Of a DNA stretch of 64,000 nt, positions 38,101-56,558 are shown one piece after another. This DNA is from a virus (lineage: Duplodnaviria; Caudoviricetes), in the IMG/VR virus record IMGVR_UViG_3300020161_002811, positions 18,227-82,226 of that record; one strand, 5' to 3'. How positions within the stretch are numbered: position 1 is the stretch's first letter; every line of letters starts with the position of its first letter. Below the pieces are notes generated by a model that was given only the letters and a program-made list of their open reading frames with translations, ran no database searches and had not been told where the DNA came from. Both the position numbers and the translations under genes were made by a program.

Positions 38101-41100
38101 CTCCACCTAAGAATTGTGCGAACCCGGTTCCATTTCCAGGATAAATATTTCTTTTATATAATTCAAGATCTACTTCTGAAGAAAAATTAGACATTAGTTG
38201 ACCCATACTGGTCATGATTTTTCCATCCCCAAAAAATGTACTAACAGGATTTCTTGTGAATACATTTGTTGATAATTTAAAGGTTGCGGCATTAGCTGCT
38301 CCACCAATATCTCCTTGCCCAGCGTTAGCGTAAGCGTTGGTGACGACGTTTCTCAATCCATCGGCTCTTTGTCTTTCAACTTCGTTGATTGGCTCATATA
38401 GTATTGTGCCAAAATGTCTAATGCCAAATCTATTTTCAGAAAAAACAGTTCCCAGAGTTGCTCTTGCTATCGCTTCGCGAACCCTGGATGCTCCCATACT
38501 TAAGAGTCTAACCATTAAGTCTCTTGGCTCAGAAAGGTACATGCCAGTATCTACTCCGCCATCGATTTTTCCGGAGTCACCCTTTTTATTTGTTGAGTTG
38601 ACTACGGCACCTAGTTCAATTGCGTCAGATTGGGCAGTGATAGTAACTATCTCCCCTTCTTCAACATTTGTTATAACTCCATTGAATAGTGTTTGCAGTG
38701 AGTTTGGATTCGAGCCATATCCGCCTCTTAAGTGAAGTCTAACTCCTGGCTTTAATCTTATGTTGTTAATGTCAACAACGTAATCATTTCTCATTCCGGA
38801 AATAATATTTTTAGCTATATTTAGAGTTCTATCTAAGATTGCGCTAATTCCATCTATAGGCGTTAGGGGATCATTGTTGAAGTCGTCATTACCTGCGTTA
38901 AATATATCTGTAGACGGGCGCGTTGTTAACTTGGAGTACATGTTTGAAACTCTTAATATTAATGTGTCTCCTAATAAATCTTCAGATGATACAACTGAAA
39001 AATCTATAACAGACTGAAGTCCATAGAAATTATCGAACAATTTAACGCCTGCAAACATTCCACCTTCATCTATAAGCCATAGCATGTAAGTAGGGAATGC
39101 TCTAATCATGCGCCCAGATATATCTCTATATTGGACATCATTCAACATCTTTTCCATATGATTATTAAAGGAGCCATCATAAGCTTTTTGGTACGCAGAC
39201 AGCGGTTGAGCTCCACTGATTCCGGTTAAAGATTTAGTGCAGCCTGTATCTGGGGTCTGCATATCTTTTACATAATTGCTTTCGAGCTTTTTTGCGCCAT
39301 CTTCAATTTTAACATTAGCGCCTTCTATTGTAAGGTAAAATCTTCCAGTATCTTTATCAATATAGCCAAAATGCGTTCCAAGAGCGCTGTACATTATTGC
39401 TGGAATTTCACTAGCGGATTGTTCTTCAGGATTAGTTAGTGGAAGTAAATTAATAATTTTATGAAAATCGACTTCATCTGGATCAAAACTAACAAATTCT
39501 TCTTCTGCTAAATGAGAACTAGACAACACTTGTGCAATAATATTTTCTGTTTGCGAACTTGTAATTCCAACATTACCTATAACGAATGGTGCTCCATTAA
39601 ACTCTTCAAAGAGTTGGCTACTCTCAGATGACTGTGAAGCTAAGAATATATAATCAGTTAAAAGTGCAGTCTTTGAATAATTATTAATGGTGTCATGGTC
39701 TGGCTCTAATGAAGCTTGTTGAAACAACGCAATAAAGTTATGAATACTGATTCCAGACTCATTTACATAGTCTATCATTTCATTGATTAAATCCTGATTT
39801 GTTTGTCTTCTAGATTCCATTGCAACAGCGTTTGTGGCGTCCGTGAATGAATATCTTCTCATGAAATCTTTAATCCTATTTTTTACAGATTGAATTTTTC
39901 TTTCAATGGCATCAGCTCCACTAGGACCATCAGTATTTCTTGCCCATTTGTCTGTACTGTCAAAAGTAAAAGCCTTAGTTAGATCTACTTGAGTAGTATT
40001 ATTATTTATAATGTCACGATCAAACATTTCGAAACTTCTAAAATAGAAATCTGGATCTAGGTTGCCAACAATATCTCCATTCTTATCCTTTACGCCTAAT
40101 GGAAGGTCGGGGTAGGCATTGAATGAGCCCCACAATTGCTTCATTCTTAAGAAGGGATTTCTCTTCGTGCCAAAGTGATTAATTAAGTCTTCTTGTTGCT
40201 TTGAAGAAATTTTTTCTCTCTGCTGCTGGAATATGTCAAAGTCAACTAGGCTCAGTTGGACTGAGTAGACATGTGGGTAATTCGGTATTGTGTCCACTTT
40301 ATAATTGAGTGGTAATACATATTTAATACCAGATAACGCAGTTATAATATTTTTAATTCCTAAGAATCCTATAACTCCAGTAGAATGTTCTAATCTAGCT
40401 AGACCATTAACATGGTCAAATACTGATCTAATTTTTAATAATTCTTTTTCACCAAACACAGTCATGGACACATTGATATAACTATCTTTTCCGCCAATGT
40501 ATTGATAGCTAGGCTCGTCTTGCATTTGAATTTGTAGTTTTGCTAAATTATTACCCATCGAAACACTAACGCCGTTAACTATGGCATTTTTTGGATCTAG
40601 ATCTACGCGATTCATTGGAACTTCCCACTCATTAAAGTGGTAGTCTCCATCTTTCAGCCTAGTTGCCTCCATCATATTCTTGACAAAGCCATCCGTAAAG
40701 AATCTTTCATACATATTTACTTGAAATGCTTCAGTTACCTGCTGTTTAACCTTTTCTCTATCTGGCTCTATTCCGGTACTTTTGGTCTGTCTAGCAATTT
40801 CTTCGTCAATCAAGATATCTAATATCTCTCCAGAATTATCGGCTCTTTGATCAAACCTATGCTTGATCTCATTTAAGCTCTTATCGCTTGTTAACACTCC
40901 GTTTAGATAGTAAGACTCTTCAGTACTAGAGTATTGAGAGAAGTATCCGGCTACCAAAACTCTTTCTTCTGACCCCAAATAATCTGTAAGCCACTTTTTT
41001 TTCTCTTCATCTAGTCTAGTTGCATTTTCAGCTACAAAAGATTTTGCTAAATAAAGATAGATTTTTTTCTTAGTGTCAGTAGTGGATATGCCTGCGGTAA

Positions 41101-43432
41101 GTACATCAATTGCTTGCTTTAAAAAGGTTCTCATACCCTTTGGAGTTGACTCCAAGGACATTGACCTAACTCCATCCAGATCCTTTATTAGAGGACTGTT
41201 GACGCTGCGTTCTATTCCGAATGAGTTAAGAAGTTTATCCCAGAGTCCAGACGCTGTATCGTTTAGTATTTTTTCTTGCTCACTTCTAAACGAAGTATTA
41301 TCGGGTAGGAATATTTTTGTTTGAACTTCAGCTGGAGTAAATAGAGTTATATTACTTCCATCTCTCCATTGAGAAATAATATTAGTAGATAAAACGTCAT
41401 TTTCGAAAGAATTCAGATATGTAAGTTTTACATCTTCTGGGAGTACATTTATATCAAAAACTTCAGACTGAGCTTCAAGCCCTGCAGCTGTCAATGCCCC
41501 TTGATCTACTGTAGTATCCGCAGTTTTATTGTCAGAAGTTTTGATTAAGAAACTTTCATTGACATACCTGTGCATTTCTCCGGCTGCTTTACCCATATAC
41601 TGACGATACTTGCCCCAATGTATTGCCTGGTTAAAATCTTTTAGCATTGGCAGGAATGGCTTATGATTGAAGTGAACCATTTCTAAATCGATAACAAGAG
41701 CAAATGGATAATTTGGAGCTGTTGCAATGGACATATTTGAAAGCCCAACAGCGGTAATACCGTGTACGGAATTCAGGTAATCATTTTTAATTGGCAAGAT
41801 TGGAGAGTACTTAAATGCAGCTACAAGACCTCTGAGCGATGATAGAAATTTGTCTATTTTTTCTTCGTCATCTCCGCCATTTTTAAAATCAATCTTAAAG
41901 GTTTCATCTAGGTTTAATGTCGCGGCATCAGAGATTGACAGGCCCCATATCTCTTCATAGTTAGGAAAGAATAATCTCATAGAGATAGTGGTTTCCTTAT
42001 AGCCTGCATTAAATTTAGGTGTGTTTTTTTGCCTGATTGCTCCACCTGTTAGTGATCCTGTTTTGAAATTAGAATTTACGCTAATTGAAACTGGAGGAAC
42101 ATAGAAGTTAGCAGCACCCAGTCTGAGATGAAATATATCTGGTTTTCTGGGTGGAATGTTTTCTCTAAATGGGAAATCTACAAGCGCTTGCTTAATGCGC
42201 TTCGCAGTGCTGTCCACCTTAAAGGCTAGGGTAAATATTGCTTCGCCACCTTTAGTGACTCCAAAAGCTTTTTCCAGTGAATCCATTGCGTCAGCTTCAT
42301 TGTTCAGAGTGTCTTCTGCTCCACCACCCTTACCATTATTTGAGTAATCACCCACCGCAGCTAGTGCATCGAATACGAATGTAACTAAACTTGGAAAATA
42401 AAAGTTTATTATAGAAAATGATATTGGATCTTTTTGAAGATTATAAACTACTTCACTTAATATTGTTAACCATGGAGTATCTATTTCAGGACTAGTATAT
42501 TCATCCATTGACCTTTTAGCTGTTGCAACGCTCTGCAGTCTTTTTTTCGCAAAATTACTAATTTCGTAGGCAAATGAAGCTAGCTGTAAAATTCCGCTTG
42601 ACTCTAACCTGGCGTAGATAGATTTGGAAGTTGCGGTCTCTAATTCTATGGGGCCAGAAGCGCCTAAACCAAAAATTCTACCAGTTGTGTTTATTGTGTT
42701 TTCGTCGGCTTCAAACCCGGAGCCTCTGTTTGTCGAGAAATATTTTTTTATTACTCCATTAATATCATTAGTCTCATTTACTGGATCACTCCCGTACACA
42801 TTATGTAAAAATATTCTAAATTCTGTTAGGTAATCCTTGGTGACTTCATTTTCTGGCTTATTATCTTCTAGCTCTTTATCTTTTTCTGTTGTATTAATTT
42901 TTTCTTCTAGCTCAAGGGCAACTAGATCTTCATCAGTTATTCCGTCTTCGCCTATGTAACTTTTCCAGATATTAAGCCTGTCAATAATAATTGACTTAGC
43001 TGTTTGCATTGTGATTTTTTTTGGAGAATTGTTAGGTAAGTAGGCGTAAAAAAACCAACTTAGTGCTTCTTCTATTTTTGGAACATTTATGGTAGCATAT
43101 CCGTAATTAACTGCCCATGTCTGAAATGTTTCAAGTACAAATAATGAATTTGAATCTTTATCTAAAATTTCGCAGTTTGCCAAACGAAGTATTGACAAAT
43201 AGGCGTACTCGTCGCCTGTGCTTTTAAAGTCATCATCAATTGCATAAATAAGGGCTTTTCCACCTTGATTATTATCATAACCAACTATATCCGGGTAAGA
43301 TCCTGGCAAAATTAAGAACAAGTACATTTCGCTTTCACTGAAAGCAGTAATATCTTCAATTATTGAATTAATACGATTTTCATCTTCAGATAGATACTTT
43401 AAGAGATCTTTTGCTATTGGATTAATTGCCAT
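32177..43432 (-). CDS. giant (3751 aa) baseplate hub-like protein with gp27/late-control-D-like regions, an RlpA-like DPBB insert and a C-terminal SNase-like nuclease domain
   Basis: LKPGVRLHLRGGYGSN...LFNGVITNV...ITAQSD and GELTLVGNPDIRPHDLVYL.D...MYG.FEVEQVVHHF are hub-type motifs. C-terminal FEDGDTF..VRFDGMDTGE..GTRAMA..LNWELVVNNLAKVY is an SNase pattern. Confidence 0.75.
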   Translation of the reverse strand: MAINPIAKDLLKYLSEDENRINSIIEDITAFSESEMYLFLILPGSYPDIVGYDNNQGGKALIYAIDDDFKSTGDEYAYLSILRLANCEILDKDSNSLFVLETFQTWAVNYGYATINVPKIEEALSWFFYAYLPNNSPKKITMQTAKSIIIDRLNIWKSYIGEDGITDEDLVALELEEKINTTEKDKELEDNKPENEVTKDYLTEFRIFLHNVYGSDPVNETNDINGVIKKYFSTNRGSGFEADENTINTTGRIFGLGASGPIELETATSKSIYARLESSGILQLASFAYEISNFAKKRLQSVATAKRSMDEYTSPEIDTPWLTILSEVVYNLQKDPISFSIINFYFPSLVTFVFDALAAVGDYSNNGKGGGAEDTLNNEADAMDSLEKAFGVTKGGEAIFTLAFKVDSTAKRIKQALVDFPFRENIPPRKPDIFHLRLGAANFYVPPVSISVNSNFKTGSLTGGAIRQKNTPKFNAGYKETTISMRLFFPNYEEIWGLSISDAATLNLDETFKIDFKNGGDDEEKIDKFLSSLRGLVAAFKYSPILPIKNDYLNSVHGITAVGLSNMSIATAPNYPFALVIDLEMVHFNHKPFLPMLKDFNQAIHWGKYRQYMGKAAGEMHRYVNESFLIKTSDNKTADTTVDQGALTAAGLEAQSEVFDINVLPEDVKLTYLNSFENDVLSTNIISQWRDGSNITLFTPAEVQTKIFLPDNTSFRSEQEKILNDTASGLWDKLLNSFGIERSVNSPLIKDLDGVRSMSLESTPKGMRTFLKQAIDVLTAGISTTDTKKKIYLYLAKSFVAENATRLDEEKKKWLTDYLGSEERVLVAGYFSQYSSTEESYYLNGVLTSDKSLNEIKHRFDQRADNSGEILDILIDEEIARQTKSTGIEPDREKVKQQVTEAFQVNMYERFFTDGFVKNMMEATRLKDGDYHFNEWEVPMNRVDLDPKNAIVNGVSVSMGNNLAKLQIQMQDEPSYQYIGGKDSYINVSMTVFGEKELLKIRSVFDHVNGLARLEHSTGVIGFLGIKNIITALSGIKYVLPLNYKVDTIPNYPHVYSVQLSLVDFDIFQQQREKISSKQQEDLINHFGTKRNPFLRMKQLWGSFNAYPDLPLGVKDKNGDIVGNLDPDFYFRSFEMFDRDIINNNTTQVDLTKAFTFDSTDKWARNTDGPSGADAIERKIQSVKNRIKDFMRRYSFTDATNAVAMESRRQTNQDLINEMIDYVNESGISIHNFIALFQQASLEPDHDTINNYSKTALLTDYIFLASQSSESSQLFEEFNGAPFVIGNVGITSSQTENIIAQVLSSSHLAEEEFVSFDPDEVDFHKIINLLPLTNPEEQSASEIPAIMYSALGTHFGYIDKDTGRFYLTIEGANVKIEDGAKKLESNYVKDMQTPDTGCTKSLTGISGAQPLSAYQKAYDGSFNNHMEKMLNDVQYRDISGRMIRAFPTYMLWLIDEGGMFAGVKLFDNFYGLQSVIDFSVVSSEDLLGDTLILRVSNMYSKLTTRPSTDIFNAGNDDFNNDPLTPIDGISAILDRTLNIAKNIISGMRNDYVVDINNIRLKPGVRLHLRGGYGSNPNSLQTLFNGVITNVEEGEIVTITAQSDAIELGAVVNSTNKKGDSGKIDGGVDTGMYLSEPRDLMVRLLSMGASRVREAIARATLGTVFSENRFGIRHFGTILYEPINEVERQRADGLRNVVTNAYANAGQGDIGGAANAATFKLSTNVFTRNPVSTFFGDGKIMTSMGQLMSNFSSEVDLELYKRNIYPGNGTGFAQFLGGDLDDGWLTAASLVEGDGKTLAGQAYLENGTDRSWNRLIVEAQNGSVSANNTIDSYVEGNELISAEGRAGAVKNVLLGGLTAGVAAIPGVNVLAGVAGGGALMGLLRGRGGNNVFKTMGIIAPNSDDDLSGFDEVSFRAQTYMRTVWDLFQMCARLLPNYIVAVRPFEDRSTIFYGKPHWLYTSGVVPVTTGFPSVRKANELNLPGYPKDRSPNDDIQTIMNNVNKQSNSLADYEAFKRSEELSDVMAGLAIDQASSTGEYAPTKSLTGKLLNFNSNLAKIRTTKDADGNEIIISKLPISSGKVKMGFHLPVSTNPTTYAPLTPSYDHRQLDNLPVRFKYPFYTISETTVLDKKSYEIRDGGLLSGFTDLLSAKNEIDTNDLDDFDKTLFNQKNVMDRYNEAIKSSEYTEGGATLAVNLIYFLQLESRFLQETEITIRPSSGILELDRPLGFTSLMDSIDSSGVEFLNLDQTTVARMPLPSVSSLQKENYPLVGFEMINSTTAQTEENSDDFSFEYELNQQITYEEWGCPATAAEEQFYIAMKWPYLPTTSDGPIPDSSLSKFKDIYFPNEDLYGTASDYKKRRVLVFSPLTGRAVVCVPAYFMWGEDNDEEVAAVVSPDAAWYLGTFVSHLNQGADLISELSESLPAWANLKSHDSNTLDMTIANSTYAQLEKLSGLSTFPRDVDCLFAFVPDSTPLGVVAAAAAPAKRFYDTTDANAYIIGFGEYAINDNGDSNKFIASKSALIPEDLGDSKGTSAAAGRRNNSLEEYSAENAKITAINYEYGGNILQSGDDPSYFQAILDKDYDALDKGNLYERLDKESYDTGDRDTGGQRVGFAAVYSPMDSTSVEARSFYDENFDPNVSVIAGNGRTLNQASDIWDQFRFGYHTYESVKAIFTKTYGMDADSTDPFPEEFSRILGANNTTSFQNFSESNIKIPGLSATDGTGVDELAILLGSDFFNSETEYGSNYGSTKSTPQDKIEAVEFIRKNYIDYQSKGVQGDAGIIQYFNSVISRSLDGIRSNFFETQVINNALSISIENKDNPETAINLSEAVKTPKQLFLLMVGLFRQKLWSSGYGRAWLVLKPDRKRGAITAGGGGEDGQWSFKPVDKVFEAFINPYSQYAKDNSKFLKLLVSTKGEGSNSSTFIGGITEDVSDFYNANIGPILGAIGDGLSSLLGMFKLSMMQMGYALSEVGNFSKQAHILNKVLNDSIYYSLGRPGTLLRAVDNPFTREYGEPVVEVRQPFQRIHYLSSFSHIISNQIQENLNNVSTVITAVSDGKNPVTVALDKGAPSERQTETTVETGLYYDNMVGSGFLGVLHPFMHPLETFRGYAKTLQGTPDELSARRVALSHLKESIKDIYGGELTLVGNPDIRPHDLVYLSDVYSRMYGIFEVEQVVHHFTSEMGYITSITPNALVTVNDPSRWFMSTWLHSWLSMQNLRNDTRFYMDNIMASNSGINMGGNISVDALADSLSTQMIGGIQYTHGSSALMKDIMANQTALSLPDKARDEITRTGQGKTPGAETVIAVVGASLARAVPIVGQLAWKGWTWLRDNVLDQHGCYVQYLNKNGQPMDAGLSYNQGMVVGRYHTKALLPGILGTKTKVKTPEGNAFIRSDDLLKSLGWQETEIKDLVRYTDYENALTHARVLSLSGLGPEKTSLQTSLFKVIATVTKFEDGDTFDVEDVISGATFTVRFDGMDTGETNTTRVGTLPSQPGGDVNYPFDNTTTLTSTSTPGGRAKIYTQSKLSNKVFVLRLKVSNSSSNDVIFEAQFEPGATENTLANYTKDSFMGDEGTRAMATVWYYQPESVINQAKDFVRSCFATNRGKVIEVGDLSNPVTQKFFTSIYEESPLNVKRSKIIDKINTLGIQYTPPLDLSIQSVADYGLTEEDFTRFYNNLVCFKVLEATYEKVNEWPTIFWDEYYEDGYPATLNWELVVNNLAKVYTKQLQIESQSVISAEESALIPRQVTLNPGT

Positions 43433-43441
43433 TGCGCTTTC

Positions 43442-43891
43442 CTATTTAAACATCATATTGTTACGAACAACAGTTCTAAGTCTATCACTTGAAGAATCTT
43501 TCATTGTAACAGAAGTATAGTTATTCATTATACTAGACTTTGTTTCTCTTTTGAAGGAATCTAAGGTAAAATTTTGCTTTTTTGTTTGCAGGTCCTTGTT
43601 GTACCTGGCTTGCTGGTGTCTTTTGCCACTGTATCCGCTGCCATTCATCTGAAGACGCGTAGTTGGGGCGTCATCTAAGCCCTCTTTAGAATATTTAACT
43701 TTATCAGATTTGCCTGATGCCTGTATCTTTTGGCGTGATTCGCCTACAACATTTTGGGTTGGGCTTTTACTAGAAGCTATTTTTGCTGCATATTTGTTTG
43801 CTGTTAAGGATCTATGGGATGTGTCTTTGGGCTGTTTAGCAGCAGCGCTGAGTGCTTTATTTTGGTCCTTGACATTTAAAATCATATACAT
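43442..43891 (-). CDS. small basic, probably disordered protein
   Basis: 149 aa, K/R/S-rich with few hydrophobic residues; flanked by 6-9 nt spacers inside the operon. Confidence 0.7.
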   Translation of the reverse strand: MYMILNVKDQNKALSAAAKQPKDTSHRSLTANKYAAKIASSKSPTQNVVGESRQKIQASGKSDKVKYSKEGLDDAPTTRLQMNGSGYSGKRHQQARYNKDLQTKKQNFTLDSFKRETKSSIMNNYTSVTMKDSSSDRLRTVVRNNMMFK

Positions 43892-43897
43892 TTAACC

Positions 43898-46800
43898 TTA
43901 ATAAGATCGGGCCATCGATTGATATGGGTCTCTTGCCACATCCGGGATTCTATTATACATAGTACTGTTAATATTCCCATTAGTAAGTCCTGATGCTGCT
44001 GTGCTGAACTTTTGTATTTGATCTCTATCTCCGAACAGGGACACCTTATAGTTCATGCCAGCAGTGTAGCCTTGACCTCTGGCCTGAGGAATCTCTGGTG
44101 ACCTTTTTGGGTAGTCGGATTCATAGGCAGATCCTCCTGGCAATAGCGGTGGACCAGAAATATCTTCTTGGGTATGATCTTTCCTGCTTTGATATAAAAA
44201 GCTTGCTGCTATAGCCAACCCAGTTCCTATTGCTGCATTGCGGACATTGGACTTACCAAACTGTTCTGCCAGATATTGTTTATTAATTCTTTTGTAGGCC
44301 GTTGCTGATGAGGAGGATTCACCACTGCCTGACAAGTCTCTAAGTGTGTCAGCGACTATGCTAGAGGTTTGATCTGTAATATCGTCTGCGTTCCGAAGAA
44401 TATTACTTGAAGCTAAATCTCCATTTAAAAAGGCTGCAGCTTCTTTGTCTGCCTGTGCATTTAATTCGAAAATAGTTTTACTTCTTAGTGCGTTAGCTAT
44501 TTTTTGCTCTTCCATACTAGCTGGCGCCTCAAGGGTTTGACCTTTTATTAATGATGAAATCACAGAAGATTTGTTGTTTGTTCCAAAGAAATCCTCTGCA
44601 AAATTTAGATCTAGTCCATCTTCTACAATGCCAGCCTTTTGAGCGTCGGACATGCCGCCAAAAATGTTATCAATATATTGCCTTAATTCAACATTCCTAG
44701 TTTCTTTTTCATATATAGCTTTATCTTGTGACATTTTCATATATCTTTGAAAAAGATTAGCACTTGTTCCATCTGGTCTCATAGATGAATCTGGAAGTTT
44801 TGTAAAAAAACCTATATCTATATTCTTTTTTATTCCACTATACTGAAGGGCGTTAGTCATCTCGTACCCGGATATGCCCATTGACCTTTGTACGTCCTGC
44901 ATCCCCTCTAAGAGCTTATCTCCTAGTTGCATTTTGCTTATTTCCATTTCTATCTTTGCCATTTCCCCTCCCCCGTCGCTATCTATTGTTCGACCTAAGT
45001 CTTGTATTGACTTTATCAAGGATGCATTTTCATCTAATATTTTTTCTGAAGCAACCTGAGAGCGTTGTGTAATCCTAGAGGCTAATTCTTGCTCTCTAGA
45101 TATTTGTGAATTTGCACTTAATCTTGTCTTAGCCTTGAGGTAATAGTCAGAAGTATTGGCTATGTCTACCATCTCTGAGATAGATCCCTTACCTATAAAT
45201 CCCCTAGCTCTTAAAACTTGTTCTACTTTTTCATATTGACTAGATTGTGCAGCTGCGCTGATGTCGGCTATGTCTGCATCGGGATCTGCCAATGCCATTC
45301 CTTCTGATAAGCTTTTAGCAAAAGTGACAAGATCAGTTTGACTCATCTTTCCACTAGTTAAAAGAGCTTCATCTAATACGAGTTTCTTCTCTGTTATTGG
45401 GTCAGCAAGGTCATATTTTTGCTTTGCGTAGCCAAACATTTTTCCATACTGTTCAATTGTAGTATTGCCTAGCTTATCTAGGTCGGCATCTTCTCCATAT
45501 ATCGCCTTGAGCATCAGGTCAGCCTGCAGGGGGTCCATGCTTCCAGCCTGTGCCATTTGTTGCATGAGTTGCCTACTAGAAGAAATACTTGCTGTAACAA
45601 TATCCTTCTTAGCTGTAACAATCTTCATCTTGCCGGAAGTAAGAGTTTGAGTCATGTCAATGACCTTTTCAGCGGTAGGGAAACCTAGTAGTAATCCCTT
45701 ATCCATAAATTCTTGTTCTATGCCGGGAATTGCGCCTAGTATTCCCTCCATTTGCCTAAGACCATGACCAACTACGGTTGACCTATTGGAATATTGTCCA
45801 AGTATATTTGTATTTGACATTGCCGAATCAATGCTCTCACTGACAAAAGTTTTACCATATAAAACGGCTTTTTGCTCTGGGCTAAGTCCCAAGTTTTGAA
45901 TTTCAGCGTAAAATTTTTCAGACAATTTACTTATTGCTGTTCTGCTCTTGATCAAATCATTTCCATTTAAATTCGAAAGATTTTTTCTTTGCGTTTCTAA
46001 TTCTTTTACAATTTTACCTAATCCTGTTTTTTTCCTCACATCTACTGTGTCATCTAAATTTGAGAATATACCAGCTTCAAGGGGCATTTCTGCAATTTCT
46101 GTTTTTAGCATTTTAAATCCGAGCGACATTAACTCTGGATCTTCATTTCCTAGCGCAATTAATTTTGTTGCAGAAAAGTTTTCTATTGTGTTTTTGCCAG
46201 ATTTTAATACTCCTAGTTTTTCAAAAAAGTTTCTATTGTAATCTCGCATTCCAGTTCCAGTAATTCTTTTACCTGCATCATCAAATTCAGCGCCGCTCAC
46301 CCTGTCGTTAACATCGATTGTCAGTTGCTCTAACATGCCCATTGTATTCGGATTGAAAAGATCGTCTGACATTCCAGTTCCATCAAGAGCGCTGGATAAA
46401 ACTTTATATTTAGAATCTTCTTCAGCCATCTTATTTAAGGTATCCATAAAGAATCTATTTTTACCAAATACTTCACGATAGCTTTCTATATCATCAAATC
46501 TAGTAAGACCAATAATTTCACCCATGGCAGTAGGTTGGCGAACCATAGCAGCGGCTAGTCTGCGCTTACCTTGTGACATATATGTGCCAAGTATGGGTAA
46601 TCCCTTGTCGTCTAAGTCGAAACCACCAAGTGCGTTATAAAACTTCCTAATGTCCCCTTCGTGAAAAAGAATATTATGATTAGAAACTCTGATATGTGCA
46701 ATTTCTGCGGAAATTTCATCACCAGCTTCACCTATTTTTACTGAAATTGGGTTTCCTGATAATATTTTTCTTCCAGTAGTTCCAGTCATTGCGTTTGCTT

Positions 46801-48748
46801 CAGAGTTAAGAGCAAATCTATAAACGTCACCAACGACTGGAAGCTTCTGTCCATTCTTGGTTTTATATAATTCGGATTGATACCATTTAGATAATAGATT
46901 CATATATTCTGGAGAATCATTAATGCTTATGCCACTATTGTGCAAGTCCAAAATTCTTTGCTGGAAGTCTCTACTCATCATTTTTGAGAATTGCTGGTGT
47001 TCCATAAAGTCATCTATATCTAGTTCTGCACCTTTTCTAATTGCCCTTAGGACCTCACTATCTTCTGTTAAGCGCCCGCTAGATAATATTGCTTGGAATT
47101 CATTTAGCACATTTTTTGAATGAGCTTTGGCTATTGCTATATCTTCATTGCTTCCAAAGACTGCGTTTTGAAAAGCTGCTAACATTGGATCGGTATACAC
47201 TCTAGAGGTAGCTTCAGCTAGTCCGCTGAAATTTACGATTGGAGTTCCAGCTGCTATCCCTGTCTCTTTTTTTAATCCACTAATAGCAGTGATGATTCCA
47301 TATTTGTCAAATCTATCTGAAAACTTTTTAAATTGAGCCGCTGTTTTATAGGAATAATCTATTCCGCCAATTCGCACAGAACCTCTAACTGAACCTTGAG
47401 ATAACCCTATAACTTCTCCGTCTTTACCTATACTTATCTCAGCTATCTGCCTTCTTAATTCAACCTTACGAATCATTGATTGTTCGTCTCTGTTTTGGGT
47501 AAGATTTAATAATTCCTCTTGTAGGGTTTCCCTTAGTCTTTGAGCGTACTTTACGTTTACTAGTGACGATCCATCTCGACCTTTTTCTAATTCACCAAAA
47601 AGACCCTTAAGAACCGTTCTAGTTTCATTATCATAACTCCCTGGGATATTTAGTAAATTTTTTACTTGCTCAATACCATATCTTCCCTCTGCGGCATCTA
47701 TGTCTCCATTTCTTACGACTTCACTTATCAGATCCCTTAGTGAACTTTTTATTTGGGCAGACTTTGCACCAAGATTTTTTGCTGCAATTATTTCATCTAA
47801 CACTTCATCGACATATTTACTTGCTTCTTGCTCTGCCTTTCCGCCACCTTCATACTGAAAGGATTGTTTCATAAATTCTACTACATCTTGTTGCTTAACC
47901 GATTTTCCGATTGAAGTATCTTCCCCGAAAGCTAGTGCCATTGTTTCGAACACATTATCAATATTGAGTGTTGCTTCAGATAACTGTTTCATTATCTGTT
48001 CAGAGCCAGCACCGGTAGGATTAAGGGGGATCTTAGGTCCCAGGAAGGATTGCATAAGATCCCCGGATATGGATATTTCTCTTGGAGAAAGAATACCTTT
48101 TAATCTTTTTGGAAGCTTTGCAAATAATTTAGACAACCCTGCATTACCGCCTTTTATTGCTTCATCTAATTCCCCTGGAGTGAATAAAGGTTTTCCACTT
48201 TTTGACATTGTCTCAAGTGTTTCCTGCATTGATAAGACTCGATCACCTTGCCTAAGATTAAGGGCCATTGCCCCATCATCGGTTGGGAAAACTAATCCAG
48301 TTCCCTGTTCTTTCATTTTTTCCAAGAAAGCTGGAATACTTTGAGATCCGATTTTTGCTTTATGGATTACAATTTGAGCACCATATTGCTGATCTCCAGT
48401 AAATCCTAATTCTTTATTGATATCTTTTAATACTTGGGCATAGTCTCTATATTCTGCGGGGCCAAGGGATCCTGGCGCAATATCCGCAAGTTCGGTCGCT
48501 CCAAAACCAGAGATATACTGCACTGCTTTTTCTAGTGAGTCAGTTACCATTTGTGCTGATTCTCCCCGATTCAATCTTAGAGAGTCAACATAAGTTGATT
48601 TAAATTGTAGTTTCCCGTCAACCTCTATGGGTTCTATTAAGCCCTTTTGGCCAAGGTACGTTTTACTTAAGGCTTGTTTAGCTAAAAGTATTTGTCTATC
48701 CATCCGCATAGGCGATAAGTAGGATGTAATTAGGTCACTTAAGGGCAT
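43898..48748 (-). CDS. putative single-subunit two-barrel (double-psi beta-barrel) RNA polymerase, likely virion-associated
   Basis: Ordered motifs: RDGSSLVN (Asp 47573-47575), VRIGGIDYSYKT (Lys 47345-47347), IITAISGLKK (Lys 47270-47272), VYRFALN (Arg 46817-46819) and NILFHE...FYNALGGFDLDDK (46604-46627). The start overlaps the tape-measure stop (TAATG). Confidence 0.65.
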   Translation of the reverse strand: MPLSDLITSYLSPMRMDRQILLAKQALSKTYLGQKGLIEPIEVDGKLQFKSTYVDSLRLNRGESAQMVTDSLEKAVQYISGFGATELADIAPGSLGPAEYRDYAQVLKDINKELGFTGDQQYGAQIVIHKAKIGSQSIPAFLEKMKEQGTGLVFPTDDGAMALNLRQGDRVLSMQETLETMSKSGKPLFTPGELDEAIKGGNAGLSKLFAKLPKRLKGILSPREISISGDLMQSFLGPKIPLNPTGAGSEQIMKQLSEATLNIDNVFETMALAFGEDTSIGKSVKQQDVVEFMKQSFQYEGGGKAEQEASKYVDEVLDEIIAAKNLGAKSAQIKSSLRDLISEVVRNGDIDAAEGRYGIEQVKNLLNIPGSYDNETRTVLKGLFGELEKGRDGSSLVNVKYAQRLRETLQEELLNLTQNRDEQSMIRKVELRRQIAEISIGKDGEVIGLSQGSVRGSVRIGGIDYSYKTAAQFKKFSDRFDKYGIITAISGLKKETGIAAGTPIVNFSGLAEATSRVYTDPMLAAFQNAVFGSNEDIAIAKAHSKNVLNEFQAILSSGRLTEDSEVLRAIRKGAELDIDDFMEHQQFSKMMSRDFQQRILDLHNSGISINDSPEYMNLLSKWYQSELYKTKNGQKLPVVGDVYRFALNSEANAMTGTTGRKILSGNPISVKIGEAGDEISAEIAHIRVSNHNILFHEGDIRKFYNALGGFDLDDKGLPILGTYMSQGKRRLAAAMVRQPTAMGEIIGLTRFDDIESYREVFGKNRFFMDTLNKMAEEDSKYKVLSSALDGTGMSDDLFNPNTMGMLEQLTIDVNDRVSGAEFDDAGKRITGTGMRDYNRNFFEKLGVLKSGKNTIENFSATKLIALGNEDPELMSLGFKMLKTEIAEMPLEAGIFSNLDDTVDVRKKTGLGKIVKELETQRKNLSNLNGNDLIKSRTAISKLSEKFYAEIQNLGLSPEQKAVLYGKTFVSESIDSAMSNTNILGQYSNRSTVVGHGLRQMEGILGAIPGIEQEFMDKGLLLGFPTAEKVIDMTQTLTSGKMKIVTAKKDIVTASISSSRQLMQQMAQAGSMDPLQADLMLKAIYGEDADLDKLGNTTIEQYGKMFGYAKQKYDLADPITEKKLVLDEALLTSGKMSQTDLVTFAKSLSEGMALADPDADIADISAAAQSSQYEKVEQVLRARGFIGKGSISEMVDIANTSDYYLKAKTRLSANSQISREQELASRITQRSQVASEKILDENASLIKSIQDLGRTIDSDGGGEMAKIEMEISKMQLGDKLLEGMQDVQRSMGISGYEMTNALQYSGIKKNIDIGFFTKLPDSSMRPDGTSANLFQRYMKMSQDKAIYEKETRNVELRQYIDNIFGGMSDAQKAGIVEDGLDLNFAEDFFGTNNKSSVISSLIKGQTLEAPASMEEQKIANALRSKTIFELNAQADKEAAAFLNGDLASSNILRNADDITDQTSSIVADTLRDLSGSGESSSSATAYKRINKQYLAEQFGKSNVRNAAIGTGLAIAASFLYQSRKDHTQEDISGPPLLPGGSAYESDYPKRSPEIPQARGQGYTAGMNYKVSLFGDRDQIQKFSTAASGLTNGNINSTMYNRIPDVARDPYQSMARSY

Positions 48749-51700
48749 TATCTAACACCTGCATTAATATCAATTTGCTCCGATCCAAAAGGATTCATAA
48801 CTGGAATGACAGATCCTGATACACCCATACCACTCATTAAGGATCTTAATCTTGAAGCGGTGTCTGTTTGAGATCCGGTTCCACCGCCAAATCTAGGATA
48901 ACTAGGATTGGATAAACTGGCTTCTTGTATCTGCTGTGGATAGTAACCCATTTGCGACATTTCCAGCCCCATATCTTGGCCAATCTTTATTTTAACTTGA
49001 TCCATACTGGTATTGGGGTGCCAACCTTCCCAGTTTTCATTAGGTAATTCGTTCTTAGAAAAATAATCAGTTAACTCTGGTCTCTTTTCTACTTCCATGC
49101 CCCACGCAGCTTCGTATATTCTTCTTTCAAGTCTTCCAGCTGTTGATAATATTCTTTTTCTTTCATCTACGGGAGCATTAATCATGGCTTTAAAATGTTC
49201 CCGTTTTCTTTTTGGTATTGCCAAAGAAAGTGACTCTATATCAGTTCCGTATCTTCCTGAATTTATTTCTTCTATTGGGGCGCCATACATTGTTCTTTTG
49301 GCAGCTGACTCATACTGGAAGGCTGCGCCTTTATCACCAGCCATACTAGCCATTTTGGCTAATCTAGTATTTTTAGTGTATGTCAGTATGTCCGCATATT
49401 CTTCTAGTGCAAGTTCTTTTTTCCTAGCCCTTGGCATGAACTGCTCTCCAGTAATGGCTTCATTGGCTGAATGGAGTGAGGAAACGCTAAAGCCCGTTAC
49501 TGCTCCAAGTGTAGACATTATAAATTTACCTTTGCCAGATTCTCCAAAGAATGTACCAGCTACCGCTAATGCAGCGGCTGCTGTTATGGGATCTCTATTT
49601 CCAGCCTTATTGATCATCGGAGCTATAAAGCTCTCAAAAGGCCTTTGCCATTCAGGGAAGGTTGCGCCATATACGTTGTTTCTTTCCCAATCTTCTGTCG
49701 CTGTTTGTTTATTTACAAACTTCTTATTAATAAATGTATCTTTATGCGCTAGCATTTCGCCTACTCTACTTACTGCGTGTACAGTCGGATGCATGCCCAT
49801 TTCCTCGGGGGTGCTATCTTTGTACTTATATTCAGTAAAGTTTTTCTTCTGCTGTATTGATATTGCGCGTTCTCTAAGTTCCTGGACCCTTAACTTATCG
49901 GTAGGATTATCTACCATGGAATCTATAGTTTTGTCTAGTGACCTAAACTGCTTTGAATACGGAGCTACGTCTCCAAGTATTTTATATTGATCCATTACCC
50001 CGTATCTACCTGTGGCATCTGGGCTTAGTCTATTTAATCTCTCATAAGCTACTCCAGGCAATCTAAGCTCTCCTTCCGGAACTTTTGTAAACGGGTCACC
50101 TGTAGTAAAATCCGTAAAGTATTCTGATCCTGGGAGGAATGGATACTGCTTGCCCATAGTATTCTTGATCGGATTTATGTAGTCAATGCCCGATCTTTCT
50201 TTGGGTATAAATCTTCTTGTTATTTCTGAAAACTCTATAGAACCTATTTGCTTTCCGCCCAACATAGGAATGTCTCCTAGTCCTCCTAGGTTCATGTCCC
50301 AAAATTGCCTTCCAGTTCCATATCCCTTAGAAGCCGATTGCAAAACTGATCTTTGTGGTGCCAGGTCTCTTTGACCTAATCCAAAACTTTCTCGTACGTT
50401 ACTCGCGGCAAAGCCGTAAATACCTAGCATTTCCTGAGTCCTATATCCAAGTTCCTGGGCTTGGATTTGTGGATTGCCTGCATTTATTGGACTGCCAGAT
50501 GGAATAATGCGCTGTGGCATAACGCCAGTTACCTTAGGTGCCCCATAGGCCATCTGCATGTATTGATTATTAACGCCGGATATTGTATTTCTAGTTTCAT
50601 TTCTGGCAGTATTGAGCGAACCTGCTCTTCCTGCTAGCATTGCGTTAGAAGATGCCTGTGTGCCGTTTGGAGGGCCTCCAGGTCCTCCCATGGCCATTCC
50701 ACCTGCAACGCCTCCCATGCCCCCAAAAACGCCACCTCTGCCATTGATGTATGGATCTGCGTTATAAGCTCCAGATTGACCAGCCGGCACGTAGTTGGCT
50801 AGTCCCGCAGCCACTTCTTGTTGATGCATCATGGTCTGAGGTTTAAGTACTTTTCCAACAGTGGCGTTGAGTGCTGGAACAAGTGGGCCGAATGGCCCGC
50901 TGAAATACTCACCAGATACAGGGTATGGCCTATCCTCAAAGTGCTTGCGCTCAAAACGATAAGGATCAAACGGTCTAAGTGGAGATATGTCAGTGTAAAA
51001 TAGCGCTCTTTCTATTGGGCTCCCCATGCTGTCCGAGGTGAACATTGCTCCAGTTTCTAGTTTGCGATATATACTTGGGCGGTAGTACATAATTTTTCCG
51101 CCCATGAATGGAGTATTGCCCAAAGGCCAGAATCGACCTTGTCTAATTGCTACTTCGCCTTCAAATAATTGTTCTTTCTTTTCTTCAAAATTCATTCCGC
51201 CAGGAGTAATGCCAGAACCAAGAGCCTGTAAATTTCCTACTGCCTTAGCAGCTCCGCCGATAAAGAATGGTGAGTAAACCCTTTCTCCTCTATCATCTTT
51301 TTCATTTACCATTCCACCAATAGTTCTGTCGGCGGTCATGATGCCCAGGCCGGCACCGTATATTGGCAGGATTCTTTTTCCTACCATTCCACTTGTAAAT
51401 AGACTTAAGGGTGAGCCGTATTGAGAAACGTCTAGCTGTAGGCCAATGGTTCCAAAATATTTATTTAGTCTTTCAACGCTGTGTGACACTGCAGTAGATG
51501 CACTAGAGTAGCTCTCTGTACTATTGTAAGTATTAATTCCTAGTGCACTTTTTATTGCGCCATATGGATTCCTAGCAAAGACGGTGCCAAAAGTTGGAAC
51601 TAGAAGAACGTCTGCGCCCTGTCCTCTTGTAGATCCGAGAACGTCTGTTGCTGCTTCCGATATCCGATAGGGAGCAGTGCTAAGTCTAGGGTATAATGCT

Positions 51701-54700
51701 TTTTTAATTATGCCAGACCTTCCTACCTCTCCTATTCTTTGGCTAGTTCCAGTAACAAAAGGATCAACTAGTCCTCCTGCGTCTTTTAGGGCCTCTATGG
51801 AATTTTTAAATGCGCCTCTCTGTACTGCTAGTTCACTTAGTCCAGCCCTATTTGCTTTCATGGAACTTAAATTAAATAGTGTTGAAAGTCCGGCTGCTTG
51901 CGCCTCTGCTAACTGACCAGCTGGCAAATCCTTTGCCATTGCAGTTATAATTTCATTCATCTGAATAAAGGTATTAGAAAAATTTTGCCCTGCTGCACCG
52001 GCAGAGCCTGATGCTAGTAATTCATTTCTTTGAACTAAATATTTGAATAATTCATCTTGAAGCTCATCCCCTCTTGTTAAGATTGTGGGGCTTCTTTTTC
52101 TGATATGGGACCCAGACATTAAATCTGCGTCCTGCATTATATCTCTTAGTCTTCTACTCGTTTCATACAGGGCGTCTGGTTCATAACCTAAGCCCCTTAT
52201 TCTGGAGGCGTCATAATTCAATGATGCAAGTACGTCATCGGTCATTTGTTTTGTATCTTGAACATTGGTAAGTGAAGAGACTCTTCTACCATTAAATGTT
52301 CCTATGCCATTATCCTCAAGAGCTTTCATTACTCTCTTGGGCATAGCAAAACCACGAGTTTGTTGTCTAAAGTTTTCAAATGCCCTTAGCATTTCGCCTT
52401 CGGTGATCATTTCACCTGCAGTGCCGGGTGACCTTGCTGTTACTGCGCCAGTATCATCTGCTATGTTTACTCTGAATTGTTTACCATTAGAGTCAACCGT
52501 TTCATTCTTGAGAAGTCGTCCAAAGAAGGCTGGATTTTCTGGATCAGTCTTTCTCTTGGCAAACCTTGACAATAAGCGCCCAATTGAATTTGGCTGCTCA
52601 TAATCAACATCAAATTTTTGCCTAAGGGCAAGTTCTCTTTCCGGACTAACTCCAAGTCTTTTTAATAAATTTGATCTATTTTTTCCATTAGCAAATTCAA
52701 CTTCATTCAGCGACTTTGCCTTGCTTTCCGAAGCTGCGTTTCTTGCAGCCCTTGAGAGCATTTCATTACTTTTTCTAGAAAGAGGTCTGTAAAATCCCTC
52801 TAACTCTTTTGACTGATATTGGCCAGTTATTGATTCCTCAGTAAAGGACATTACCTTATGCTTAGTGCGGCCTCCACTATAGGACAAAAAGAAATCAGCG
52901 CCTCTATCTGCTTCAGGGAGAAACGGTTGGGATACTTTTCCTTGCACTATCTGGAATGGAGCACGGCCTGACATTTCGTCAAATGAGCCTTTTCCAAACA
53001 TCCGCGCTGGATTAAAGTTAAGTATAGGAATTTTTAAATCATTACTTAAGAAGTTGCCAACGTTTCTTACCGATTGCTTAACGCCAGAAAAATCTAATAC
53101 ACTTCCAGAACGAGTTGTATAAACATCTCTCATTACTGAAACGCTAGAAGATGTTGTCGTTGGATCGGCTAATGCCATTCTCTTGGATATTTCACCTAGC
53201 ATTGTTTGACTATCGTCGCTAAGTCCTGCGAATAGCCCTTGACTTACGCCTTCATCTAAAGTCATTGCCTTTAATCCGAGAATATTAAATCCTCTACTAA
53301 ATATGCCAGTACTTATCTGCTTTTCTCTTACTAGAAAACTTCTTAGGCTATCTGGATTATTAGTGTTTAATCCTCTTTTTCCTAGGCTTTGACTCAGTAC
53401 AGCATTAGAGACTTCTCGACCATTTGCGTCTTTTAGATTTATTCCTAACCTTTGCGCTGATCTTTTAATTAAGAAATCTTTTTGGGAAACTGATAAATTA
53501 TTTAAGTCTGCAAAATCTTCAAAATCTGCCTTTTTAGTTTTTAGCACCTTGCCTGCCACACGGGGCATGGCATTATCTAGTATGGAATTCCATCCCTTTT
53601 CTGCTTTTACTTTTATTGCAGCTTGAAATTCTTTTCCTTCAAATATTCTATTAGTATTTTCTATAGATGTTTTCAGGGCATCTGAGCTGAGAAACCCTCC
53701 CTCAATCGGATCGTCTACCGTTGTTGAAAATCTTTTTAATATTTCCTCAAAAGCTTCATCGCCCTGTTTGATGATTTTAGTTTTGCCAATAGTTACTTTT
53801 CTACTAGTTTCTTTGACTGAAGTATTAACACTTACATCATTTATGAATTTTCCTAAAGCCCCGGAAAATCCTTCACGACCAGAATTTGGTGATATATCTA
53901 ATATTTGTTTTTGAAGAAGCTTCTTAAACTCTCGCTCTTCTACTTGTCTATAAAACTCTGAGCCACTAAAGGTCTTACTACCTACACCTCCTCCTCCGCT
54001 ATCACTAAATTTTTGAGCTAACTTGGATACTTTGTTGGAGAAATTAGCTCGCACATTTGTGACTACACTAGTTAATTCATCTGCATTCATACCAGATTTA
54101 TGTAGGGCTGCGTCAAAACTTATTGCTTTATTTATTACATCGTAGCCAACTCCAGTTTTCTTAAATGCACTAATACCTTGATTGACGCCTGAGCCAATTC
54201 CTCTTAATCCGGGCAATAAATCTATATAGCCAAAATTGCCATCTGCTCCATCTCCAAAAGCTAATTTTCGACCAAATGTTGCAGCTCTTTTTAGAGTGCT
54301 TTGACCTGTAGAATTTGCCCAAGATTCTCTAGCTCCAGTGTTTCTAACGCTGTGCATAATGGCATTGATGTTAGGTCGCTGACTTACATAGTTTTCTGTT
54401 GCTGCCTTAACTGCAGCTGAACCCTGAGCTGAAACTTTTAATGCCTGATTTGTTATCTTACCTAGGTCGTGACCTACTTCTCCAAGAATATCATCTAAGT
54501 CAGTGAATCGCTGAGCTGCTTTTGTCTTAAAAGAATTAACCCCAGATGACCGCGCAACGTCGCCCATGGATTGTCTAAAATTATGGAGAGATGATCTTGC
54601 GTTGCCTGCTGCTGCCCCAGCTACCTCGAATGGCAGAATCATCGTAGCTAAAGCTATTGATGATTCTTTAACAAAGTCCGTAACAACATCTACTGGGTTG

Positions 54701-55367: not shown

Positions 55368-55997
55368 TTAACCTGATCTCCACAACTGGTTTGCAATGGG
55401 GTCTTGATATGCTGCTTCTCCTTCTTTCTTGGAAAGATTATGACGAGCAGCTTTAACTTTTTCTTTTTCTACTTCTTCTTGTGGATCAATCAATTGCAAA
55501 GTTAAATTGGTTGGCTCCATACCATTCATATTCTGTTTAATCTCAATTATTTTTTCTGAAAGAGCTACATTTTCAGCTAACTCAGAGAATGTCATATTCT
55601 CTAAATCATCTGGGGTATATGTAGATATAGTAGCGAGAACAAAGGCTTTCATTAAATTTTTGACCTCAGTAGCTTCATATCTTTTTTCCTCAAGAATATT
55701 CTTAGCCAAGGACACAGTAAAGAAGCCAGATATATTCAATATCTCTTGAGACAATGAAGACACTGCCCCAGGAGATATTGACATTAAATCAAAATTTTCT
55801 GGATAAATAATAGCGTACGACAGAATTAGGTCTTCCATATCAGCGGAAGAAAAACCATCTAAACCCTGAAGATATAATATCTTATTATATTCTTTAAAAG
55901 TTAATTCTCTGAAAACTAAAGTTTGACTTTTTACATCAACGCTATAGATGTTTCCATATTTACTTTTTAAGGTAAATACTAACTCTGGGTCTATCAT
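55368..55997 (-). CDS. tail assembly chaperone (paralog 2)
   Basis: LKSKYGNIYSV...LVFRELTFKEY...IIYP...PGAVSSLSQEILNISGF parallels the upstream chaperone; positioned before the TMP. Confidence 0.75.
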   Translation of the reverse strand: MIDPELVFTLKSKYGNIYSVDVKSQTLVFRELTFKEYNKILYLQGLDGFSSADMEDLILSYAIIYPENFDLMSISPGAVSSLSQEILNISGFFTVSLAKNILEEKRYEATEVKNLMKAFVLATISTYTPDDLENMTFSELAENVALSEKIIEIKQNMNGMEPTNLTLQLIDPQEEVEKEKVKAARHNLSKKEGEAAYQDPIANQLWRSG

Positions 55998-56000
55998 AAA

Positions 56001-56558
56001 TTACAGCTGTCTTACCTCTAAGGCAACGAATCCTGAAGCTTCTAATACCTCTTGGGCAATTAACGAAGGGAGGCCAGCCATAAATCCAGCAGAATTATTC
56101 TTGTCAAACTTGGGGTACAGCATGCATAACTCTGATATGGTTTCTTCATTCCAGAGGTTAGCTTCTGCTGTAGTTAGCTGTCCTGCCTGAACCAGCTGTT
56201 CCATTTTCTTAACAATTTGCTTATACTCAGCACGATTTAAAACTCTCCATACAATATGCTTATCATAAGTAATAGATGTTACATAAATGTCACCATATTG
56301 CTTTTTCCAATCCTTGACAGTGCCTGCTAGCGGTCCGCCATCCCAAATTGGTTCTTCATCTGGAACATCTTCTATATCCTGGTAGTCAGCATCGTTCTGC
56401 ATTGGCAGCTCTTCATCTTCTAAGTCTGGAGAATAGCCTGATGCAAGATCGCTTGCGTTGGGGTCATCCGACATTTCTAGATCTACCGTAGTAGTTTCAA
56501 AGTCTTCGCCAGATTCAATATCTAGATTTTTAACAACAACTTTTCTTTTAGAATCCAT
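56001..56558 (-). CDS. tail assembly chaperone (paralog 1)
   Basis: WKKQYGDIYV...IVWRVLNRAEY...CMLYP...AGLPSLIAQEVLEASGF, with an acidic N-terminal extension. Confidence 0.75.
   Translation of the reverse strand: MDSKRKVVVKNLDIESGEDFETTTVDLEMSDDPNASDLASGYSPDLEDEELPMQNDADYQDIEDVPDEEPIWDGGPLAGTVKDWKKQYGDIYVTSITYDKHIVWRVLNRAEYKQIVKKMEQLVQAGQLTTAEANLWNEETISELCMLYPKFDKNNSAGFMAGLPSLIAQEVLEASGFVALEVRQL

Follow-up and report, generated by a model that had tools for sequence, protein, structure and literature searches.

A giant protein in the tape-measure slot of an uncultured phage is predicted to resemble single-chain two-barrel RNA polymerases

We analyzed P0001, a 1616-amino-acid (aa) protein encoded on the minus strand at positions 43898-48748 of a 64-kb stretch of viral DNA (hereafter the window; 64,000 nucleotides (nt), positions 18,227 to 82,226 of IMG/VR record IMGVR_UViG_3300020161_002811), and we propose, with a probability of roughly 60%, that it is a single-chain member or a close structural relative of the two-barrel (double-psi beta-barrel, DPBB) polymerase superfamily that serves as an ejected early-gene transcriptase. 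The evidence consists of a predicted fold whose only extended matches are single-chain two-barrel RNA polymerases (RNAPs), of residues that are invariant in a very diverse family and fall, by alignment ranges, at predicted catalytic positions of the superfamily, and of a fixed genomic position in the tape-measure slot of the tail module. We infer packaging in the virion, ejection, catalysis, the template and product, and the timing of transcription. The original prediction, made from the letters of the window, had described P0001 as an otherwise unannotatable tail-operon protein that is a highly diverged RNAP, and the words 'otherwise unannotatable' and 'tail-operon' proved apt: nothing in Pfam, PHROG or the PDB sequences matched the protein, and its gene is fixed in the tail module of 68 related loci. 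The RNAP interpretation itself was supported in part.

Two models were built with AlphaFold2, each from a different alignment of family members only and without templates. Model 1 (residues 340-800; 46 sequences) had a predicted local distance difference test score (pLDDT) of 77.4 and a predicted template modeling score (pTM) of 0.72, and model 2 (residues 330-1200; 48 diverse sequences) had a pLDDT of 82.2 and a pTM of 0.81. Both contain two beta-rich domains with a helical connector between them and a large helical region after them. In a Foldseek search of the PDB, model 1 matched QDE-1 at ranks 1-8 and the phi14:2 virion RNAP at rank 9, with RDR2 and P32 gp64 lower, and the ranks of model 2 listed to 15 were all QDE-1, 6vr4 (rank 3) or RDR2, with a best E value of 7e-3. 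When the structures were superposed with VIA-align, the top 12 matches of model 1 were all two-barrel RNAPs (Z 5.1-7.0, 185-258 residues aligned), followed by short helical matches. Model 2 aligned to QDE-1 (2J7N_A) with Z 8.6 and a root-mean-square deviation of 5.2 Å over 394 residues (P0001 353-1200, QDE-1 688-1175), to RDR2 with Z 7.1 over 343 residues, and to P32 gp64 with Z 6.1 over 307 residues. A wider, Foldseek-independent scan of 48,161 chains returned QDE-1 as the sole extended match of model 2 (Z 8.0, 390 aligned), the other rows of the top 50 being helical hairpins of 51-86 residues on one helical bundle; the same scan with model 1 placed QDE-1 and P74 gp62 on top (Z 6.3), and P23-45 gp96 reached Z 5.3-5.5. 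Among the predicted structures of BFVD, the top entries came from uncultured phages and were uncharacterized (851 aa, E 5e-10); crAss-like giant proteins (ranks 4-6) and an entry called 'RNA dependent RNA polymerase' followed. The ESM Atlas gave nothing usable for P0001. Since a single superposition spans both barrels, the beta-like first barrel and the beta-prime-like second barrel are predicted to be placed relative to each other as in RNAPs, and it is the exclusivity of the matches, together with the aligned length and this one superposition, that makes the case for an RNAP fold.

The family of P0001 comprises more than 170 metagenomic proteins and is divergent. A word-index search found at least 57 homologues with identities down to ~23%, and an exhaustive phmmer search with the core found 133 representatives of 50%-identity clusters, mostly of 1500-1700 aa. 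Conservation was calculated from an alignment of 122 family members with identities of 15-84% (most ~20-25%) and a mean column identity of 13%. Against this background, D392 and G393 are each conserved in 114/114 sequences, R455 in 109/114, K468 in 115/116, K493 in 118/119, D520 in 114/120, R644 in 115/121 and R687 in 102/120, and D711, D713, D714, R737, P739 and E744 in 120/120 each; farther downstream, G984 (111/111), N988 (108/110) and D1031 (110/111) stand out. The layout of the protein that follows from the models and the alignment is given below (all features on the minus strand).

43898-48748, minus strand: P0001, 1616-aa two-barrel RNAP-like protein in the tape-measure slot (open reading frame and translation)
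47609-48748, minus strand: N-terminal module, residues 1-380, with a conserved basic patch K211/K214/R215/R223 (invariant alignment columns)
47189-47596, minus strand: predicted first barrel (beta-like, DPBB-B/DPBB1), residues ~385-520, with D392-G393, N398, R455, K468, K493 and D520 (model strands, conservation, QDE-1 alignment)
46868-47188, minus strand: helical connector between the barrels, residues 521-627 (helices in the models; conserved G606 and P613)
46496-46867, minus strand: predicted second barrel (beta-prime-like, DPBB-A/DPBB2), residues 628-751, with R644, R687, the Asp loop, R737-Q-P739 and E744 (model strands, conservation)
46604-46627, minus strand: putative metal-binding loop G-G-F-D-L-D-D-K (D-x-D-D), residues 708-715 (D711/D713/D714 invariant)
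46529-46540, minus strand: invariant R-Q-P-T, residues 737-740, 23 residues past the Asp loop (R737 and P739 120/120)
45299-46495, minus strand: mostly helical region, residues 752-1150 (model 2; conservation)
43898-45298, minus strand: C-terminal module, residues 1151-1616 (invariant columns 1519-1609)

The first barrel of QDE-1 carries D709 (Mg B), Q736, R738, K743 and K767, and its second barrel carries D1007/D1009/D1011 (PMC9508822). The signature of the superfamily consists of four Asp, an Arg/Lys, a Lys and an R-x-P, with R962/P964 of QDE-1 located upstream of the triad, and this eight-residue signature with its D-x-D-x-D loop has been treated as universal for cellular-type RNAPs (PMC2919709). 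In P0001 we looked for the pair of conserved basic residues (Rpb2 K979/K987; QDE-1 R738/K743, plus K767), for the fourth Asp (QDE-1 D709; Rpb2 D837), for the D-x-D-x-D triad and for an R-x-P that precedes the Asp loop by ~30-45 residues (QDE-1 R962/P964; Rpb1 R446/P448). The basic residues are present: R455, K468 and K493 all lie on predicted strands of the first barrel, and the spacing of K468 and K493 is 25 residues, compared with 24 for K743 and K767 in QDE-1. The barrel aligns to QDE-1 from about residue 700, and D392 is located just ahead of its first strand, ~10 residues past the point aligned to QDE-1 701, with a helical hairpin inserted after it. In model 1, the ends of the alignment ranges put D392 close to D709, and the Asp loop close to D1007-1011, to within a few residues in each case. 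In the second barrel, strands were modeled at 645-649, 668-672, 679-689, 692-695, 715-725, 728-738 and 745-751 (model 2), and the Asp loop reads [G/T]-[F/Y]-D-x-D-D in 173/179 family sequences (wider pattern x-[FYMH]-D-x-D-D).

These results bear on most of what the original prediction had said of the protein itself. The five peptides it quoted occur in the order given, at residues 391-405, 450-469, 485-494, 642-650 and 690-715, and they hold the most conserved residues of the family; the two barrels it placed at ~380-760 are borne out by the predicted fold. The Q-x-R-x-GG-x-K pattern it drew on is replaced in the first barrel by Q451-x3-R455 ... K468 ... K493. Its comparison with known RNAPs stood at the level of structure, where QDE-1, phi14:2 gp66 and P23-45 gp96 were matched, and fell at the level of sequence profiles, where none was.

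Past the second barrel, the structural alignment runs on to QDE-1 residue 1175. The helical region that follows the barrels contains a long helix (982-1004) with a conserved L-G-x-Y-x-N-R (983-989), which we regard tentatively as a candidate for the bridge-helix/trigger-loop region. The C-terminal tail of the protein is highly conserved (G-P-P-L-L-P-G-G-S-x-Y-E ... Y-N-x-x-P ... D-P-Y), and within the tail-operon form only one other part is better conserved than the last 100 residues. This motif is found in 126/173 sequences, at a constant ~820 residues past the Asp loop, and it is missing from a group of compact homologues of 794-832 aa (P0159, P0162), which carry the same motifs in a core that starts at about residue 79 and lack the N- and C-terminal modules. 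Because the compact homologues hold the motifs without the end modules, the enzyme module can be delimited to residues ~385-1150, and we propose that the C-terminal module may be the virion-incorporation, hub-binding or tail-anchoring part. Compact P0159 (832 aa) is encoded at L090:3342-5840 on the plus strand of a 10.7-kb contig, where its neighbors are 710, 202, 572, 150, 68 and 668 aa long and have no precomputed Pfam matches; it may be what another phage lineage uses as a non-virion version of the enzyme.

Sequence searches with P0001 gave noise only in Pfam and PHROG. Pfam searches of 25 family members including P0001, at E values up to 10, also gave noise only, and neither P0001 nor the other 24 members matched the hidden Markov model (HMM) PF05183 of the eukaryotic RNA-dependent RNA polymerase (RdRP)/YonO-like family. 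Phmmer and family-profile hmmsearch runs against the PDB sequences returned apolipoprotein-type helical noise only, and a scan of 185,579 prokaryote genomes yielded no relative of P0001 and thus neither a prophage nor a clue to the host.

The window is the right-hand part of an 82-kb IMG/VR viral contig whose completeness is estimated at 39%, implying a genome of ~200 kb. The IMG/VR sample codes of the lineage indicate an origin in environmental metagenomes. The genes listed around P0001 in the tail region are all on the minus strand and follow each other, in the order of transcription, as the sheath (59141-60379), three tube-like genes, genes of 185 aa and 209 aa, P0002, P0001, a 149-aa gene, P0003, and baseplate/fiber genes. 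The ATG of P0001 overlaps the stop codon of P0002 as TAATG and has an AGGTG 8 nt upstream. The neighbors that define the locus are as follows.

55368-56558, minus strand: small genes of 209 and 185 aa, placed where 0305phi8-36 has its two-gene tail chaperonin (position; synteny in 63/68 loci)
48748-55353, minus strand: P0002, 2201-aa giant protein directly upstream of P0001, homologue of 0305phi8-36 gp145 (BLASTP 6e-49 to ORF145)
43442-43891, minus strand: 149-aa gene between P0001 and the hub (in 62/68 loci)
32177-43432, minus strand: P0003, 3751-aa baseplate hub protein (phrog_20474 at 1e-118; tblastn to the ORF147 hub of 0305phi8-36 and relatives)

The order of two chaperone genes, P0002, P0001, the 149-aa gene and the hub was found with no exception wherever the flanks exist among the 68 related IMG/VR loci. 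The tblastn search with the hub identified Bacillus phage 0305phi8-36 and similar jumbo myoviruses as the closest cultured relatives; the phages named 'moraphage' are a different, T4-like lineage (PMC12619734). In 0305phi8-36 the tube paralogues are followed by two chaperonins, gp145, gp146 and the hub gp147, and gp145 and gp146 are annotated, on mass-spectrometric evidence, as components of the virion. On the basis of tail length, Hardies et al. identified gp146 as the tape measure and noted that one gene separates it from the chaperonins (PMC2147016). Since P0002 is homologous to gp145 (over the C-terminal ~900 residues of P0002), P0001 occupies the slot of gp146 (orf146), the tape-measure position, which is also where P23-45 encodes its virion RNAP gp96. 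By the same analogy the 209-aa and 185-aa genes are putative tail chaperonins. Comparisons of the P0001 family with gp146 (ORF146) and ORF145 by hhalign and BLASTP showed no similarity, and family searches gave no match for the 149-aa gene. We also observed that a motif of P0002, L-P-G-S-x-Y-F ... L-P-G-x-x-Y-E, is weakly like the C-terminal L-P-G-G-S-x-Y-E of P0001 (hhalign E 0.1), which could be a common docking or processing motif or chance. The match of P0003 to phrog_20474 ('endolysin', 1e-118) has its best stretch at residues 1424-1676 only, and that to the gp147 hub covers 30-38% of the 833-aa query (~residues 1145-1977) with only the central few hundred residues.

The complement of transcription genes was examined in four relatives of 194-216 kb with completeness of at least 92%. 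In these, PF00623 (beta-prime) and PF05183 (RdRP/YonO-type) gave no match, although PF05183 does detect orf99 of 0305phi8-36 at 1e-20, and the family profile and two compact homologues hit the tail gene only, so that no second copy or compact paralogue of the P0001 family was found. A 291-aa protein encoded upstream of the window (L004:4050-4925, minus strand) matches sigma-factor PHROGs at 1e-8, and its gene is conserved in all four relatives; it shows no Pfam sigma domain, and PF04542 (sigma region 2) found nothing. In three of the four relatives the sigma-like gene is in pieces in overlapping frames, which may reflect assembly errors or frameshifting. The same contig carries a replication module (L004:7376-10711, minus strand, and neighbors) with a DnaE-type polymerase (phrog_405, 1111 aa), a primase, a DnaB-like helicase, an exonuclease and an HNH endonuclease, a set that resembles that of 0305phi8-36, and the window itself encodes a class II-like ribonucleotide reductase (3551-5485, minus strand). 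The heptamer TACTATA occurs at 28 sites in the window, compared with 16 expected (0/100 shuffles reach 28), and most copies are inside coding sequence.

Two related genomes have broken versions of the gene. In G002 (L075, C1:186000-203000) it forms two open reading frames, and a split gene of the beta/beta-prime type was considered there and rejected: homology continues through the spacer in the +1 frame, which makes the break a single +1 frameshift, located in the variable loop of the second barrel and probably due to an assembly error. In G004 (L076, C1:57000-74000), a genome with direct terminal repeats and 100% completeness, each of the giant tail genes (P0002, P0001, hub) is split over several open reading frames, and one piece has an in-frame TAG. 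In both genomes the breaks are probably assembly errors rather than recoding.

From the structure models and the gene context we suggest how P0001 might act. Residues ~385-1150 would form the enzyme, in which D392, R455, K468 and K493 of the first barrel would hold the RNA 3' end and the phosphates of the incoming nucleoside triphosphate, while D711, D713 and D714 of the second barrel would coordinate the catalytic Mg2+. Relative to all described members this site would be rewired, with an F-D-x-D-D loop that is followed by the R-Q-P hairpin. The modules at the two ends, residues 1-380 and the C-terminal one, would be additions of the tail-operon form that place P0001 inside the tail, from which it would be ejected with the DNA and would transcribe the first phage genes. 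Later genes would then be read by the host RNAP, possibly redirected by the phage sigma-like factor, and this most economical model of transcription would resemble those of N4 and P23-45. If the proposal is true, the strategy of placing an RNAP at the tape-measure position, seen in P23-45 and a few other Thermus siphoviruses, would also be that of uncultured jumbo myoviruses, which form a large and widespread lineage, and it would explain how infection starts in these phages without a recognizable RNAP gene. If the protein is active, its D-x-D-D loop and re-ordered R-x-P would show that an RNAP active site can be rebuilt, and it would provide a new minimal scaffold for mechanism studies. 'Hypothetical' giant tail proteins can hide enzymes that sequence searches miss.

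Several observations weigh against P0001 being such a transcriptase. At the active site, the canonical Asp triad that had been predicted is replaced by D-x-D-D: the loop is [G/T]-[F/Y]-D-x-D-D, and the position two before its first Asp is never Asp, while the D-x-D-x-D strings of P0001 occur only at 1087 and 1155 and neither is conserved. Likewise, the order predicted for the second barrel, a conserved Arg followed by the Asp loop, gave way to an invariant R-x-P after the loop. R737-Q-P739 lies 23 residues downstream of D714, and an R-x-P follows 26-34 residues past the start of the Asp motif in 170/173 sequences; upstream of the loop only R644 and R687 are conserved, neither with a following Pro. 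The residue equivalences to QDE-1, and the placement of the Asp loop opposite the lysines, are deduced from alignment ranges. HMM and hhalign comparisons link the family to no RNAP at the sequence level, and Z scores of 6-8.6 are in the 'middling' range of the alignment tool. Of the features that tape measures typically have, neither a metallopeptidase (Pfam) nor a clear transmembrane segment was found in the protein, the hydropathy of a 16-residue hydrophobic stretch (~1503-1518) being below the transmembrane threshold, and a folded polymerase core of 85 kDa is hard to fit into the lumen of the tail tube. No cultured phage was found to carry the protein, a tblastn search of 50,697 phage records giving no match to P0001, and the search of the four relatives for a T7-like RNAP (PF00940), which gave no match, was made without a positive control.

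If the F-D-x-D of P0001 is equated by eye, not by a computed alignment, with DFDGD/DFDID, the first Asp corresponds to G/T and an extra invariant Asp follows. The R-Q-P-T of P0001 resembles the R-x-P-[ST] of beta-prime/Rpb1, and the position of the R-Q-P-T hairpin after the Asp loop suggests that the second barrel is permuted. We found no paper that describes a D-x-D-D loop with a two-barrel polymerase. Tentatively, and at somewhat below even odds, the family may be a distinct ancient branch of the superfamily with a circularly permuted catalytic barrel and a D-x-D-D Mg2+ site, whose members are both the tape-measure-slot protein and the injected transcriptase of an entire lineage of ~200-kb phages without another RNAP.

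The resemblance to RNAPs could be an artefact of modeling and of weak matches, with both fold and function unrelated. The best Foldseek E value of 7e-3, a Z of at most 8.6 where best values of 7-8 are common for models without a clear match, and the silence of the HMM and hhalign comparisons would all fit such a view, but two template-free models from different alignments gave the same exclusive list of matches over 250-394 residues, and the invariant residues coincide with the catalytic positions of the superfamily. Because of these two independent models and the location of the invariant residues, we consider an artefact very unlikely. It is somewhat easier to imagine, though still improbable, that P0001 is primarily a tape measure or ejection protein with a non-catalytic relic core, or an enzyme that is made late and not packaged. 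Its gene is in the tape-measure slot, its length is conserved (1540-1720 aa across the family), its C-terminus is highly conserved, as in tape measures (PMC2147016), and canonical catalytic motifs are missing. However, three invariant Asp, two Lys, an Arg and the R-Q-P at ~20% identity are hard to explain without catalysis, the compact stand-alone homologues keep exactly the same residues, and the 2201-aa P0002 could be the length ruler; a purely structural tape measure is therefore unlikely in view of the invariance of charged residues at such low identity and of the compact homologues.

A two-barrel enzyme with another role, such as primer synthesis, DNA synthesis (archaeal PolD-like), RNA-templated synthesis (QDE-1/RDR2) or a motor function that draws the 200-kb genome into the host, is to our minds similarly improbable. 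The closest structures, QDE-1 and RDR2, are RNA-dependent or dual enzymes, the metal loop and the order of the R-x-P are unlike those of every characterized transcriptase, and the sigma-like gene suggests that the host RNAP is used. On the other hand, PolD is not among the structural matches, a DnaE-type polymerase and a primase are encoded by the phage itself, and the phage precedents of the fold (YonO, gp66, gp96/gp64) are all DNA-dependent RNAPs.

The best structural matches of P0001 are QDE-1 of Neurospora and plant RDR2 (PF05183; PDB 2J7N, 7Y7P, 7EU1, 7W82). The first-barrel pattern D, R, K, K of QDE-1 appears equivalent to that of P0001, with a K-K spacing of 24-25, whereas QDE-1 has DYDGD with R962-x-P964 upstream of it, and P0001 differs from QDE-1 and RDR2 in the helical hairpin after D392, in its N- and C-terminal domains, in being a phage tail-module protein and in having no PF05183 match. 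Among phage enzymes, gp66 of the crAss-like phage phi14:2 (PDB 6VR4), described as a 2180-aa podovirus protein that is ejected from the head and has a DFDxD triad, is a giant single-chain two-barrel protein, as is predicted for P0001, and delivery with the virion, seen for gp66, is what we propose for P0001. The F-D-x-D of P0001 resembles the DFDID of gp66 by eye rather than in a computed alignment, and differs from it by G/T at the first Asp position and an extra Asp after the third position.

YonO of SPbeta and orf99 of 0305phi8-36 are single-chain two-barrel RNAPs of Firmicute phages, and 0305phi8-36 is, by its tail genes, the nearest cultured relative of the phage that carries P0001. Unlike P0001, orf99 matches PF05183 at 1e-20 and is encoded in the early right arm instead of the tail module. 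An hhalign comparison of the P0001 family with orf99 found nothing, a profile search of the whole 0305phi8-36 genome found no P0001 homologue, and relatives of the P0001 phage had no orf99 homologue. With a YonO-like RNAP in its early arm and an unrelated protein in the tape-measure slot, 0305phi8-36 contrasts with the phage of P0001.

In P23-45, the virion RNAP gp96 is fused to the N-terminus of the tape measure, and there is a non-virion paralogue, gp64 (P74-26 gp62) (PMC10770324; PDB 8H2M, 8H2N, 8F72, 8F5M), whereas no such paralogue of P0001 was found in the four near-complete relatives. With its canonical DFDGD, its 5002-aa chain and its metallopeptidase and transmembrane domains, gp96 of this siphovirus is unlike P0001, which has 1616 aa, belongs to a myovirus, carries D-x-D-D followed by R-Q-P and shows no detectable sequence similarity to gp96. 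The folds of the P23-45-group RNAPs match the predicted fold of P0001 with Z 5.3-6.7 over 133-307 residues (P74 gp62 Z 6.3-6.4; P32 gp64 6.1-6.7). As in P23-45 gp96, a single-chain two-barrel core is predicted in a protein that a long-tailed phage encodes at its tape-measure position, and the polymerase-like part lies N-terminal to the putative tail-related part.

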